From positions 1-44,660 of the forward strand of contig PUMZ01000165.1 in the NCBI GenBank assembly GCA_003551565.1: a stretch of DNA of 44,660 bases, in the 5' to 3' direction. This DNA is from Candidatus Brocadiaceae bacterium (GTDB lineage: Bacteria; Planctomycetota; Brocadiia; SM23-32). Under the pieces are notes generated by a model. That model saw nothing but the letters and a program-made list of their open reading frames with translations. It was not told where the DNA came from and made no database searches. Position numbers and translations under genes: made by a program. The stretch's first letter is position 1. Each line of letters begins with the position of its first letter. Of this stretch, positions 8,718-31,673 are shown one piece after another.

Positions 8718-9629
8718 ATGAAAATCCTTGTCGCCGAAGACGAACCGACATCCCGAAGGATGCTGGAAAAAATCCTGACCGTGAGGGGGTATGACGTTGT
8801 AACTGCAAGCGACGGCCGAAGCGCCTGGCGCACGATGCAGGGAGGTGATCCGCCCCGCCTTCTGCTCCTTGATTGGGTCATGTCCGGAATGAGCGGCGTA
8901 GAACTGTGCAAGAAATTGAAACAGGCGGAATTGGAAAAACCGATTTACATCATTATCGTGACCGCCATGTCGAAAGAGAAAGATCTGCTGAAAGGTTTTG
9001 AGGCGGGGGCCGACGACTATATTACCAAACCCTATAATGCCAATGAACTGCAGGCCAGAATTGGCGTGGGCATGAAAATGCTCTCCGCGCAGGATTCTCT
9101 TATTTATACGGCAAACCACGATTACCTGACCGGCGCCCTGAACCGTCGTGCCGTCATTGACGCACTGCACCGTGAGCTGGCCCGTGCCGGGCGGGAGAAG
9201 AAAGCCTTAACAACCGCCATCCTGGACATTGACCGTTTCAAAAACATCAACGACACGTACGGCCACATGGTCGGGGATGAAGTGTTGAAGGGCCTTGTAA
9301 GAAAACTGCAAAGCATCGCCAGGCCGTATGACTACATCGGGCGCCTGGGGGGCGAAGAATTCCTCCTGGTCTTGCCCGGGCTGGAGTCCGTCGACAGCGG
9401 ACGGCGTCTGGAGGCGGTGCGCCAGGAGGTTGAGGACTGCTCTATCACGACCGATGGCGGCGATGTCGGCCTTACCATCAGTATCGGCGCCGTGGTGGCC
9501 GAAGGCGATGCTGATGTGGACAAAATCATCGGGTCTGCAGACCGGGCCCTCTACCGGGCAAAGGATGAAGGCCGCAACAGGGTCGCCTTTGCCCGCGAAA
9601 AAGGGGAAGCAATAACGCGCACGCGGTGA
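8718..9629 (+). CDS. Response regulator-diguanylate cyclase (REC-GGDEF, PleD/WspR-like)
   Basis: MKILVAEDEPTSR, LLLLDWVMSGMSG and ITKPY mark the receiver. The GGDEF domain has I-site RPYD-x5 and an intact GGEEF. An in-frame upstream ATG at 8694 is an alternative start. Confidence 0.9.
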   Translation: MKILVAEDEPTSRRMLEKILTVRGYDVVTASDGRSAWRTMQGGDPPRLLLLDWVMSGMSGVELCKKLKQAELEKPIYIIIVTAMSKEKDLLKGFEAGADDYITKPYNANELQARIGVGMKMLSAQDSLIYTANHDYLTGALNRRAVIDALHRELARAGREKKALTTAILDIDRFKNINDTYGHMVGDEVLKGLVRKLQSIARPYDYIGRLGGEEFLLVLPGLESVDSGRRLEAVRQEVEDCSITTDGGDVGLTISIGAVVAEGDADVDKIIGSADRALYRAKDEGRNRVAFAREKGEAITRTR

Positions 9630-9959
9630 GGTCAGTTAAAAAAAGGTCTAATACGTTTTCTTTATTTGCCGAATATCAGTTTAACGCATGGTGTACTGTC
9701 TTTGATACACTCGAGGACGCGGAGTTAGCGGGAGCATCCTGCCCATGGCGATCCCGCAATATCACAAACTAACGGCGATAACTGAAATAAAAGAAGACGT
9801 CGCAGAATGGATGGACCAGGAGCAGCCGGTCCACTCCCATCGGCTTTCCCGGAGGCATCGCAGTAAAACTGTGCAGTAACTATCTGGCCGGGCATCGGCA
9901 ACGGGATCCAGCGAGCAGTCGGGGCCCATGATTGTGCATTTTTAAGGAGGAGGTAACTG

Positions 9960-10490
9960 ATGAGTGAAACTGTGAAGGAAGCGGAGAAGCAGAGGCGTAA
10001 GGCCGAGGCGGGCAAATATCTCACCTTTATGCTCGGTGAGGAGGAATACGGCATCGAGATACTCAAGGTGCAGGAAATCATCGGACTGATCGACATCACC
10101 AAGGTGCCGCGGGTGCCGGAATACATCAAAGGCGTTATCAATCTGCGCGGCAAGGTCATACCCGTCATCGACCTCCGTGTGAAGTTCGAACTGGATGCGA
10201 AAGAATATACCGAAAGGACCTGCATCATCGTCGTGCAGGTCGGCCACAAGGGCCAGACCATCACCATGGGGTGCATTGTTGACGAAGTGCGCGAGGTCAT
10301 GGATTTCGCCGACCACCAGATCGAGCCGCCCCCCGATTTCGGCGTGCAGGTCGACACCCGCTCCATACTCGGGATCGGGAAGGACACGGAGCGGAGGGAG
10401 AAAAAGGAAAAGGAAGATCGCGTGGCCATCCTCATCGATGTCGACAGGGTGCTGGCCGAGAGCGAGGTGGAGGAAATTAAGAAGATGTAA
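9960..10490 (+). CDS. cheW: Chemotaxis coupling protein CheW
   Basis: AAGGAGGAGG RBS. LTFMLGEEEYGIEILKVQEIIG...VPRVPEYIKGVINLRGKVIPVIDLR is the classic CheW core. Confidence 0.93.
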   Translation: MSETVKEAEKQRRKAEAGKYLTFMLGEEEYGIEILKVQEIIGLIDITKVPRVPEYIKGVINLRGKVIPVIDLRVKFELDAKEYTERTCIIVVQVGHKGQTITMGCIVDEVREVMDFADHQIEPPPDFGVQVDTRSILGIGKDTERREKKEKEDRVAILIDVDRVLAESEVEEIKKM

Positions 10491-10493
10491 CGG

Positions 10494-10512
10494 GCGGCCG
10501 GTTGCCGGCCGC
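10494..10512 (+). terminator. GC-rich hairpin between cheW and mcp (weak terminator or attenuator candidate)
   Basis: GCGGCCGG-TTG-CCGGCCGC, an 8-bp perfect stem, followed by GCCCCCCTTTGTTG. The U-tract is poor. Confidence 0.3.
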
Positions 10513-10612
10513 GCCCCCCCTTTGTTGCTGTCCGGCATGAGGCAGGGGCCGGAACCACAGGCAGGCACGACAGGTTTTGCGTTTGTTCACTTTTTTTGGA
10601 GGATTTCAAGAT

Positions 10613-29243: not shown

Positions 29244-29717
29244 ATGGTCGCGGTGGGCATAGGGGAGATGGCCGTATCAGATGACCCGTCGGAGGTCTTG
29301 ATCACGTATTCGTTGGGGTCCTGTATCGGTGTGAGCATGTACGATCCGGCAGTTAAAATCGGCGGTCTTATCCACTGCATGTTGCCTTTGAGCAAGGTGA
29401 ACCGCGATAAGGCCCGGCAGCAGCCGGCCATGTTCGTCGATACAGGGATTGTCGAATTGCTGCGGGAAATGTATAAGCTGGGCGCCACCTCCGGAAACGT
29501 GATCGCCAAAGTGGCGGGCGGCGCGGCGGTGCTGGACAAAAAAGAGCTCTTTCGGATAGGCAAGAGGAATCTGACCGTTTTGCGAAAAATTTTATGGAAA
29601 AACAACATTTTGCTGGAAGCGGAGGATGTCGGAGGAGCCAGGCCGCGCACTTTGCACCTGGAGATCAAAACCGGCTCCACGGTTGTGAAGTCCCGTGGTA
29701 CAGGAAAAAGACTGTAG
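29244..29717 (+). CDS. cheD: Chemoreceptor glutamine deamidase CheD (canonical active site)
   Basis: MVAVGIGEMAV...SLGSCIGVSMYD...GGLIHCMLP...AKVAGGA...IGKRNL...EDVGGARPR. My recollection of T. maritima CheD is that it starts MKKVIGIGEYAV, which supports ATG 29244. GTG 29202 is upstream and in frame. Confidence 0.88.
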   Translation: MVAVGIGEMAVSDDPSEVLITYSLGSCIGVSMYDPAVKIGGLIHCMLPLSKVNRDKARQQPAMFVDTGIVELLREMYKLGATSGNVIAKVAGGAAVLDKKELFRIGKRNLTVLRKILWKNNILLEAEDVGGARPRTLHLEIKTGSTVVKSRGTGKRL

Positions 29718-29765
29718 TCCATGTTTTCGGTGTGTATTGCCTCTGAATTGCAGGAAGGGTACGAT

Positions 29766-30146
29766 ATGAGCACTAAAATCCTTGTTGTGGATGACTCCCC
29801 CCTTGTCCGGAAAATGGTCGGGAAGACCATTCAACTCAGCCATCTGGAAAATCCGGACGTGTACGAAGCCGGAAACGGCAGAGAGGCCCTGGATATTCTG
29901 GACAGCGACCATATGGATCTCGTTATATCGGATATACATATGCCGCAGATGGGCGGGGAGGAGCTGATCGCAGCCATCCGCAAATCCACAAAGTATGCCG
30001 ATCTGCCCGTGATGATACTCAGCTCCGAGGGCAGTGAAGCGATGGTGAAGAAGCTGAAAGCGCAGGGGATAAAATTGTTCGTGCAGAAACCATTTACTCC
30101 CGAATCTCTCCGTGATGCGATCGAATCGTTTGATTTTCTGGTATGA
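29766..30146 (+). CDS. cheY: CheY-like single-domain response regulator
   Basis: MSTKILVVDDSPLVRK, LVISDIHMPQMGG, ILSSEG and VQKPF. Confidence 0.9.
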   Translation: MSTKILVVDDSPLVRKMVGKTIQLSHLENPDVYEAGNGREALDILDSDHMDLVISDIHMPQMGGEELIAAIRKSTKYADLPVMILSSEGSEAMVKKLKAQGIKLFVQKPFTPESLRDAIESFDFLV

Positions 30147-30613
30147 TTATGGATACTGACGATAAAGAAATGCTTGAGCAGATAGTGTGTGATGCACTCG
30201 AGGATCTCGCCTTTCTGCTGGCGGAACCCGTCGGCAAAGACGACCTGCCTGGATGGCCGGTGCCTGCTTACCGTGTCGCTGTGGAGGTGAAGGGAGCGGC
30301 GGAGGGTGAAATACTTATGGTGGTTGGTCGTGGGAGCGTGCAGGAGATGGCGGGCAACATGATGGGGGTTGATGGAGCCGAGATGGAGGGGAGGGAGGCA
30401 TATGTGGAGGATGCCGCAAAAGAGATGTTGAATACCATCTGCGGCCATCTGCTGCCGGCAATAGTCGGAAAGGAGAAGGAGCTTGAGCGGACGGTCCCCG
30501 CACTGGATCAGGCCGGCGCCGAAGCGTGGGAGAGGATGCTCGCATATCCCGATATCATGTGCTTCGATGTGGAGGGGAGTCCTCTGCTTGTTGTTGTCGA
30601 CATCGGGGATTGA
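30143..30613 (+). CDS. Third CheX-like protein
   Basis: [31 protein letters not shown] fits D-x3-E-x2-N-x21-P. Its ATG overlaps the cheY stop (ATGA). Confidence 0.55.
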
Positions 30614-30635
30614 TCTTGTTGGCAGGGTGTATGCT

Positions 30636-31673
30636 ATGGCGGAAAAAGTCAGGGCCATGATTGTGGACGATTCAGCCGTGGTGCGCCGGCTGTTGCGCAG
30701 GCAGCTTGATGCGGATCCCGGCATCGAGGTCGTAGCTACTGCGCCGGACCCTTACATAGCGCGCGACAAGATCGTGCAGCTCCGTCCGGATGTTGTCACC
30801 CTCGATGTCGAGATGCCGCGGATGGATGGCATCACCTTCCTGAAGAAAATCATGAATCACTTCCCGCTGCCTGTGATCATTGTCTCGTCCCTCACCCCGA
30901 AGGGAGGGGCTCTGGCGCTTGAAGCAATGGATGCAGGGGCTGTGGAGGTTATTGCAAAACCGGGCAGCCAGTACAGTGTGGAGGAGATGGGCGAAGAATT
31001 TGTTGAGAAGGTTAAGGCGGCGGCCAGGGTCGCTGTCGAACGGAAACAGCCTGCTGCCGAAGGGAAAAAACCCTCCGTTGATATTCATCATAAACTCGTG
31101 ACAACCAATAAGGTTGTGGCGGTAGGGGCTTCGACCGGCGGGACAGTCGCTTTGCAGTCGATACTGACCTGCCTTCCGCCGGAAGCGCCCGGTATCGTGA
31201 TGGTTCAGCATATGCCCGAGACGTTCACGAAGTGTTTTGCCGAGCGACTGGATTCTCTGTCGGCTGTCAAAGTGAAAGAAGCGTCCGACGGCGATGCCGT
31301 CATCACGGGCCATGCTCTGCTCTGTCCGGGTAACTACCATATAGCGCTGCGACGGTCCGGGGCCAGGTATTACGTCAAGGTCAAATCCGGTCCACTGGTG
31401 AATCGCCACCGCCCCTCCGTTGACGTCCTGTTCCATTCCGTTGCCGGAGCCGCCGGAGCCAACGCGCTGGGGATCCTGCTGACAGGCATGGGCAGAGACG
31501 GGGCGGAAGGGCTGCTCGAAATGAAAAATGCCGGAGCGAAAACAATCGCCCAGGACCGGCAGAGCAGTGTCGTTTACGGGATGCCCCGTGCCGCTGCTGA
31601 ACTCGACGCCGCTGAAACCGTTGCTTCTCTGAACGATATCCCCCGGTTATTGCTTGAAGCCTTCCACAATTGA
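30636..31673 (+). CDS. cheB: Chemotaxis methylesterase/deamidase CheB (REC + esterase)
   Basis: [52 protein letters not shown] and SSVVYGMP. Confidence 0.93.

Follow-up and report, generated by a model that had tools for sequence, protein, structure and literature searches.

A flagellar chemotaxis cluster interleaved with two hybrid kinases, a porin and a predicted diguanylate cyclase in a Candidatus Brocadiaceae genome

Here, we propose that the chemosensory genes in a 44,660-nucleotide (nt) stretch of DNA from a Candidatus Brocadiaceae bacterium (contig PUMZ01000165.1; the whole stretch is called the window below) form an ordinary flagellar chemotaxis cluster that is interleaved with a relocated porin and with a separate relay, which would run from two hybrid histidine kinases, HK1 and HK2, through a histidine phosphotransfer (Hpt) domain to a REC-GGDEF response regulator acting on cyclic di-GMP (c-di-GMP). 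Both modules would be there for motility. We put the probability of this reading at about 0.45, a little short of even. As far as sequence comparison goes, the order of che genes, kinases, porin and REC-GGDEF is an unusual mosaic so far unique to one lineage, and mosaics of similar kinds have been published. The original prediction, made from the letters of the window, spoke of an undescribed composite signalling system; its anatomy and its unusual mosaic hold, with the 16-gene order found in no related locus, but the claim that the parts form a composite goes beyond the evidence.

The open reading frame (ORF) listing and Pfam scans recovered an unbroken series of 16 plus-strand genes at 8694-31673 with the domain architectures that had been predicted (Table 1): REC-GGDEF, CheW, a methyl-accepting chemotaxis protein (MCP), an outer-membrane protein (OMP), HK1, CheY1, CheX1, an X2-like protein, CheA, HK2, CheD1, CheR, CheD2, CheY2, CheX3 and CheB. 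As a PAS-GGDEF-HD-GYP-type gene lies directly 5' of REC-GGDEF, 17 signalling genes stand in series before the flagellar operon, all on one strand. With realistic starts the five large intergenic gaps measure 330, 533, 332, 246 and 411 bp, in agreement with the 260-530 bp first estimated, and no credible small ORFs were found in the intergenic gaps. Gaps of 161-533 bp set the kinases and the porin apart from the che genes, and cheR-cheD2-cheY2-cheX3-cheB are closely packed. The cluster abuts flagellar genes, as had been noted, with flgF starting at 32078. All nine receivers retain the phospho-accepting Asp, the Thr/Ser and the Lys.

The core set of a flagellar Che system is complete, with CheA, CheW, MCP, CheR, CheB and CheY all carrying their defining domains or residues. 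CheA has the P1 motif HTIKG, matches CheA domains in the PDB over P1 and P3-P5 (2.5e-110), has a low-complexity linker in the place of P2 and no receiver domain by Pfam; before P1 it bears a helical extension of about 140 amino acids (aa; 21206-21640) that has no family match and is weakly conserved in relatives (24-28% identity). Equivalents of D12, D13, D57, T87 and K109 are present in CheY1, CheY2 and CheB. The CZB domain of the MCP lies in a 285-aa domain between the transmembrane (TM) segments 11-29 and 316-334 and so is periplasmic, as originally predicted; it scores 32.8 bits in Pfam against a cut-off of 29.4, and its 3His/1Cys zinc motif (H..L / C.FG.W / H...H) is complete (HYQL...CRFGRW...HQRFH, residues 161-218). 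Periplasmic CZB domains are a known minority, making up 3.9% of CZB sequences (PMC8262984). The hairpin tip of the receptor is residue 487, about 143 residues from TM2, which gives about 20 heptads per arm, a count that does not fix the chemosensory class. A FliA-like sigma factor gene is also found in the window, downstream of the che region, and together with the adjoining flgFGAHI-NKL genes it lends only indirect support to the flagellar motor as the predicted output. The earlier caution that the output cannot be deduced was right.

This chemotaxis module is widely conserved. We collected 127 CheA-anchored loci from scans of GTDB genomes and JGI metagenomes, mapping their genes by tblastn, and the same che gene set occurs in more than 100 of them across many phyla. 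A module of the form CheW-(MCP)-CheA-CheR-CheD-CheY-(CheX)-CheB is found in Acidobacteriota, Hydrogenedentota, Fibrobacterota, Krumholzibacteriota, Nitrospirota, Actinomycetota, Bacillota and others. Locus L131 (10001-19998) shows the plain form, CheA-FapA-CheX-CheY-CheD-CheR-CheD-HDOD-CheY-CheX-CheB, and L136 (3193-14736) has the same gene set split over two divergent operons. Identity of the window proteins to this cluster type is 49-57% for CheA, 57% for CheB, 49% for CheR, 52% for CheD2 and 42% for CheD1. Paralogues of the CheD1 and CheD2 types stand either side of CheR in L131, L133 and L001, and a linked module of the form CheY1-CheX-CheX-X2-like recurs in L003, L018, L024, L035 and L067, where the leading CheY is 56-58% identical to CheY1. 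The doubling of CheY, CheX and CheD could look like a sign of a composite system; because it is present in L131 and L136 without any kinase, it is ancestral to the cluster type. Our literature searches found no description of a cluster type with two CheD flanking CheR, HDOD, FapA, two CheY and two CheX.

The window departs from the L131/L136 type in four ways: it lacks both FapA and HDOD, which are usual in that type; its cheY1-cheX1-X2-like genes precede cheA instead of following it; it is interspersed with HK1, HK2, the porin and REC-GGDEF, whereas the type as a rule has neither kinases nor porin; and its CheD1 has lost the catalytic Cys that the CheD1 of the cluster type keeps. At matching positions, orthologues of HK1, HK2 and REC-GGDEF were found in 0 of the 127 loci, and the porin is absent from the orthologous clusters of all relatives examined except L007. 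The available relatives thus lack the kinases and, with that one exception, the porin, the finding that had been named beforehand as pointing to accidental adjacency; they are no closer than about 49% in CheA, so that a recent recruitment within this lineage is possible. Among genomes, metagenomes and 5.8 billion proteins, the nearest CheA relatives are 44-49% identical over most of their length and about 60-62% over the kinase core, and the lineage is evidently very sparsely sampled. An identical CheR protein is also encoded on a 4.8 kb Logan contig from SRR490150.

Aligned to Thermotoga maritima CheD (2F9Z), CheD1 has Ala at the position of the catalytic Cys (GSAVAV; GSA...NHF) and CheD2 is canonical. 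The catalytic residues of the T. maritima enzyme we take to be Cys27 and His44 (Chao et al. 2006). Since the Cys is lost here and retained in the CheD1-type orthologues of L131, L133 and L001, CheD1 is a probable pseudo-enzyme particular to this genome.

Two genes had been called CheX-like in addition to cheX1. One of them, CheX3, passes the Pfam threshold and is a proper CheX. For the other, the 159-aa X2-like ORF, the label is probably apt, and the protein is best read as a divergent member of the CheX clan. It has no sequence match in Pfam, NCBIfam or the PDB, and a single-sequence AlphaFold model was unusable (pLDDT 33). Its family numbers 163 representatives at 50% clustering in 1.84 billion proteins. 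E98 and N101 do not vary among 31 family members (DGLSEVFN; E-x2-N), and in a profile comparison with CheX (hhalign, E = 2.7e-4, with a probability of only 42%) the two align on the catalytic E-x2-N; the conserved Pro lies 13 residues past the Asn rather than about 22. The domain can stand alone (about 160 aa), lie at the C-terminus, form repeats or follow two CheX domains (P0380; these forms are among P0365-P0513), and such fusions with CheX speak for a tie to the clan. In the five loci with the linked module it is syntenic behind CheX-CheX.

Turning to the interleaved genes, HK1 sits in the membrane, its dCache domain lying in the periplasm between TM segments 23-41 and 289-307, and HK2 is cytoplasmic with no TM segment. 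Both have a canonical H-box. The two receivers of HK1 have intact D/T/K residues, the first receiver of HK2 has Cys at the first acidic position, and the Hpt domain of HK2 keeps the HxxKG motif (RLHALKG). The kinases are collinear, with 58% identity in the first PAS domain and 44% in the kinase core, and are old members of a single family. We considered and rejected gene conversion or a local duplication of recent date, as in the shared PAS only 51% of third positions agree among the codons for conserved residues, and HK2 is nearer to foreign kinases than to HK1. GC content at third codon positions (GC3) and codon usage are native-like in HK1, HK2 and the porin gene, on which ground their recent horizontal gain was rejected. 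HK2 belongs to a very common type of multi-PAS hybrid kinase, with its closest homologues 39-41% identical, and its two best full-length homologues (39-40%) are not near che genes. The gene for one of these (P0246, in locus L134) is followed by a stand-alone Hpt gene and by a REC-GGDEF gene whose product is, over the full length, 42% identical to that of the window.

REC-GGDEF is a predicted active diguanylate cyclase, with equivalents of D57, T87 and K109, an RxxD I-site and an intact GGEEF motif ('RPYDYIGRLGGEEF'). The protein encoded 5' of it has the variant GGDEY and an HD motif, no literal GYP motif being found, and could be a c-di-GMP enzyme that has degenerated or that has two activities.

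The porin is, judged by its homologues, a putative member of the DcaP family. Its own Pfam DcaP score of 22.1 bits falls short of the cut-off of 27, and homologues at 45-52% identity, mostly from Planctomycetota (Phycisphaerae, Sedimentisphaerales), carry PF19577 and the NCBI name 'DcaP family trimeric outer membrane transporter'. The protein has a signal peptide (MKGIRKAVLTAAVMLAAVPFCFA), an N-terminal coiled coil (RRIERLEGELQELREG) and a C-terminal aromatic barrel end (...SLTFRF). The genes of its closest homologues (52%) adjoin STAS/EamA or acetyl-CoA synthetase/MFS genes, away from che. In L007 (5439-8358), a DcaP-like OMP gene (39% identity, with a signal peptide, one internal stop and a truncated end) lies between cheW and an MCP gene with two periplasmic CZB domains. 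The combination of a DcaP-type OMP with an adjacent periplasmic-CZB receptor thus occurs in two genomes that are distant from each other and share the che class, which hints that porin and receptor may form a pair.

The porin gene is bracketed by two repeats in the layout mcp-A...B-OMP-A-B-HK1, so that the OMP and HK1 genes carry a near-identical upstream element of 150 nt. Repeat B holds a 29-nt imperfect inverted repeat and TTCTCTGCG 9-mers (RNA fold z = -2.7). No further copies of either repeat were found in the window or in 136 fetched loci, and Rfam gave no match anywhere in the window; the repeats may represent the scar of an insertion or duplication, regulatory sequence common to OMP and HK1, or REP-like elements. 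In the same stretch, a GC-rich hairpin 22 nt past the mcp stop (-43.9 kcal/mol, z = -5.5, none of 200 shuffles as stable, no clear U-tract) is a likely boundary of the cheW-mcp transcript. It is the sole significant transcription signal in our motif and fold scans. Sigma-70 promoters and terminators at 8400-20400 are at chance level, and terminator-like sites at 19000-33000 exceed those in shuffles but are mostly minus-strand or intragenic. The region probably comprises several transcription units, as originally predicted. We also observed, in the mcp-OMP gap, a canonical leftward intrinsic terminator on the minus strand (13001-13013; GCCCCTTCGGGGC then TCTTTTTTGT) with no minus-strand gene feeding into it, which may be a remnant of rearrangement.

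How might such a region work? For the chemotaxis module, we suggest that the periplasmic-CZB receptor and CheW would control CheA, that CheA would phosphorylate CheY1, CheY2 and CheB, and that the three CheX-clan phosphatases would dephosphorylate CheY. Adaptation of the receptor would fall to CheR, CheB and CheD2, with CheD1, its catalytic Cys lost, probably working by binding only. The second module appears to be lineage-specific: HK1, a membrane kinase with dCache and no Hpt, and HK2, a cytoplasmic PAS kinase with Hpt, would feed a His-Asp-His-Asp relay through the Hpt of HK2 to REC-GGDEF and so alter c-di-GMP. The DcaP-type porin would have reached the mcp-HK1 gap by relocation or duplication, and a ligand sensed in the periplasm may enter through it. 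The partners in the relay, its effect on c-di-GMP and the separateness of the two modules are inferences on our part; the modules are probably adjacent because both govern motility. We take the second module to be separate because it has no orthologues in related loci, the HK2 homologues lie off che, large gaps, the hairpin past mcp and the repeat-bracketed porin divide the region, and of the two collinear kinases just HK2 carries an Hpt.

The alternative that fares best is that the kinases and the porin landed here by rearrangement in a genome with many genes of these kinds and have no functional tie to chemotaxis or to REC-GGDEF, which we consider unlikely though well worth weighing. It would account for an arrangement conserved in none of the 127 loci, for the unrelated genes beside the closest porin homologues, and for the apparent rearrangement scars, namely the repeats round the porin and the orphan minus-strand terminator, with an insertion sequence (IS) element 3 kb upstream; DcaP porins and multi-PAS hybrid kinases are, besides, very abundant families, and in L073 the kinases near cheA are parted from it by cell-wall genes. 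What it explains poorly is the presence on one strand of two kinases of the same family and two c-di-GMP genes with no non-signalling gene among them, which is unlikely by chance, and a codon usage that implies long residence in the genome. It must also pass over the second OMP beside a periplasmic-CZB receptor in L007 and the recurrence of hybrid kinases with this che class. In light of the 17 same-strand signalling genes, the native codon usage of the kinases and the unrelated hybrid kinases of L133 and Bacillota, chance alone is a less likely explanation than a functional neighbourhood.

Those other hybrid kinases also bear on a second alternative, an integrated pathway in which phosphate would pass between CheA and the hybrid kinases, as between CheA3 and CheS3, either from CheA to a kinase receiver or from the Hpt of HK2 to CheY1, CheY2, CheB or REC-GGDEF, so that MCP, dCache and PAS inputs jointly set motor switching and c-di-GMP. 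In L133 (15260-22325, on the metagenome contig GCA_004196315.1), genes for REC-HisKA, REC-PAS-HK-REC and dCache-PAS-HK proteins are packed directly behind cheR, with overlaps (4 bp) or gaps of at most 66 bp (including one of 17 bp), apparently in place of cheD2-HDOD-cheY-cheX-cheB, and about 12 Bacillota loci (including Selenomonas and Clostridia) have a PAS hybrid kinase behind cheB. We considered the L133 and L073 kinases as orthologues of HK1 and HK2 and rejected them, the identity being 23-31% (24-26% for L133) and confined to generic regions.

Several observations weigh against our proposal, some of them in favour of such integration. A genuine operon with hybrid kinases is possible for this che class, as the L133 block shows. 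HK2 lies on the same strand between cheA and cheD1-cheR and starts only 161 bp 3' of cheA, with no convincing or significant terminator at the junction, and co-transcription of HK2 with cheY1-cheX-cheA, and hence a tighter coupling, is therefore possible. REC-GGDEF, the supposed end of the relay, is separated by che genes from both kinases, at a distance of 5 kb for HK1 and 14 kb for HK2, and the analogy with L134 is weak, as 42% identity is usual for the REC-GGDEF family. Finally, no relative close enough to show a stable arrangement within the lineage was found, the nearest CheA being only about 49% identical over its full length (62% over the kinase core).

The integrated pathway can further call on published precedent (PMC3868531), on the surplus of CheY and CheX genes, and on the two receivers of each kinase, one of which could be a regulatory acceptor, the first receiver of HK2 being atypical. 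We nevertheless rate it as improbable, since the surplus CheY, CheX and CheD are ancestral and occur without a kinase, the receivers of HK1 and HK2 are C-terminal as in ordinary phosphorelay kinases, whereas those of CheS3 and of the L133 kinases are N-terminal, and the kinases are missing from every orthologous cluster examined, have their closest homologues away from che and are flanked by large gaps. Cross-phosphotransfer between the kinases and the Che proteins is possible but unsupported. Should signals pass between the kinases and the Che proteins, this deep-branching uncultured lineage would link chemotaxis to c-di-GMP control by way of receivers that the two have in common, and the CheA3/CheS3 precedent would be extended to a flagellar system. 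More improbable still is a single three-kinase network of all 16 genes, with receivers shared through the Hpt of HK2 and the extra REC domains, one phosphate pool for flagellar switching and c-di-GMP, and the DcaP porin supplying the ligand of CZB and dCache.

The view that known che clusters carry neither hybrid kinases nor envelope proteins, on which the original prediction leaned, is contradicted by CheS3 of Rhodospirillum centenum (PMC3868531) and CrdB of Myxococcus xanthus (PMC3147164), as well as by L133 and many Bacillota loci. In R. centenum Che3, CheA3 phosphorylates a receiver of the in-cluster hybrid kinase CheS3 (PMC3868531), and the likeness to the window is that a che cluster encodes a second, PAS-containing hybrid kinase besides CheA. 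That second kinase is the one feature of the R. centenum-type cascade present here, an N-terminal receiver and a CheA-REC being absent: CheA3 is a CheA-REC hybrid and the CheS3 receivers are N-terminal, whereas in the window CheA is without REC and the kinases end in REC-REC(-Hpt). Che3 of R. centenum controls cyst formation, not flagella, unlike a cluster that adjoins flg genes and carries CheX phosphatases. The likeness shown is limited to shared domains.

The M. xanthus che3 genes adjoin those of CrdS/CrdA and the OmpA-domain lipoprotein CrdB, a juxtaposition that comparative genomics ascribes to insertion within a narrow lineage (PMC3147164). There too, a che module stands beside a conventional kinase-regulator system and an envelope protein. 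However, in M. xanthus che was inserted beside a conserved two-component system, whereas in the window kinases and a porin would have been added to a conserved che cluster; the M. xanthus output is an NtrC-type regulator, and CrdB is not a DcaP barrel.

The resemblance to WspR that had been seen in REC-GGDEF does not stand. As in the Wsp system of Pseudomonas, a REC-GGDEF protein with intact GGEEF and I-site is encoded beside che-like genes, but in Wsp the kinase WspE joins CheA to REC, CheY and phosphatases are lacking, and wspR is last in its operon. In the window no Response_reg domain is found in CheA, the cluster encodes two CheY and three CheX-clan proteins, and REC-GGDEF is at the head, 330 bp before cheW; the first two points rule out a Wsp-like (alternative cellular function, ACF) reading. 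The CheX and CheD proteins recall those of Thermotoga, Bacillus and spirochaetes, with the D-x3-E-x2-N motif in CheX and Cys-His in CheD; the window differs in having no CheC or CheV, three CheX-clan genes, one from a subfamily without a model, and an extra Cys-less CheD.

Our analysis also documents a widespread and experimentally uncharacterised che cluster type, with CheD paralogues round CheR, HDOD, FapA and several CheX, and identifies a CheX-like domain family for which there is no existing model. The recurring pairing of a periplasmic-CZB receptor with a DcaP porin is open to testing, and the region illustrates how such che clusters may take up extra kinases lineage by lineage.

Table 1. 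Features of the chemosensory region and its flanks, with positions in the window
Feature	Position	Strand	Description and support
REC-(HisKA_2-like)-PAS-sigma-54 AAA+-HTH regulator	618-3092	minus	824 aa
IS element	3165-5284		33-nt terminal inverted repeats; DDE transposase 3415-5157
PAS-GGDEF-HD-GYP-type protein	7019-8557	+	Pfam HD_5 8e-38, GGDEF 7e-28; 136 bp 5' of REC-GGDEF
REC-GGDEF response regulator	8694-9629	+	Pfam Response_reg and GGDEF
CheW	9960-10490	+	Pfam CheW 2e-37; 43-57% identity to CheW of related clusters
MCP	10613-12733	+	4HB, CZB and MCPsignal, without HAMP; Pfam MCPsignal, 4HB_MCP_1, CZB
GC-rich hairpin	12755-12785	+	inverted repeat I9; 22 nt past MCP stop
Repeat A, copy 1	12803-12846	+	~45 nt, GCAGAAT tandem 7-mers; family D3; downstream of MCP gene
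Repeat B, copy 1	13073-13228	+	~150 nt; just 5' of OMP start; families D1, D2, D6, inverted repeat I1
OMP, putative DcaP family (beta-barrel)	13267-14526	+	homologues with PF19577
Repeat A, copy 2	14528-14571	+	begins 2 nt past OMP stop; family D3; 93% identical to copy 1
Repeat B, copy 2	14670-14815	+	just 5' of HK1 start; extra partial copy 14642-14664
HK1	14859-19346	+	1495-1502 aa; dCache-HAMP-PAS x3-GAF-HisKA-HATPase-REC-REC, without Hpt; Pfam
CheY1	19593-19964	+	single-domain receiver; Pfam; catalytic residues intact
CheX1	19990-20568	+	CheY-P phosphatase family; Pfam CheX 8e-12; aligned D-x3-E-x2-N...G...P signature invariant
X2-like	20546-21025	+	159 aa; no Pfam/NCBIfam model
CheA	21206-23443	+	Hpt (P1), dimerisation, HATPase and CheW-like domains; Pfam
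HK2	23605-27219	+	1183-1216 aa; PAS x4-HisKA-HATPase-REC-REC-Hpt; Pfam
CheD1	27631-28197	+	Pfam CheD
CheR methyltransferase	28366-29184	+	Pfam CheR_N and CheR
CheD2, canonical CheD	29202-29717	+	Pfam 5e-29; Cys and His intact (GSC...IHC), aligned to 2F9Z
CheY2	29721-30146	+	Pfam; catalytic residues intact
CheX3	30143-30613	+	Pfam CheX 40.6 bits, cut-off 27; D-x3-E-x2-N motif
CheB	30588-31673	+	REC and methylesterase; Pfam; start as in gene call on L071
Flagellar rod/ring/hook-associated operon	32078-40174	+	flgF, flgG, flgA, flgH, flgI, one gene of no assigned family, flgN, flgK, flgL; Pfam

Around the cluster, a sigma-54-like -24/-12 element (CGGCATAACGTTTGCA, 32015-32030) ends 47 nt 5' of the flgF start; sigma-54 sites as a class are not enriched in the window (19 against 22.6 expected), and matches of the sigma-28 type are mostly intragenic. 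A sigma-54-type regulator is encoded on the minus strand near the start of the window (Table 1), and sigma-54 activators adjoin the same che class in L008, L020, L041, L025 and L075. The transposase gene of the IS element and a PDDEXK gene are the sole outliers in GC content and codon usage, and a third end-like copy of the IS (5723-5778) lies past the PDDEXK_3 gene (5303-5674).

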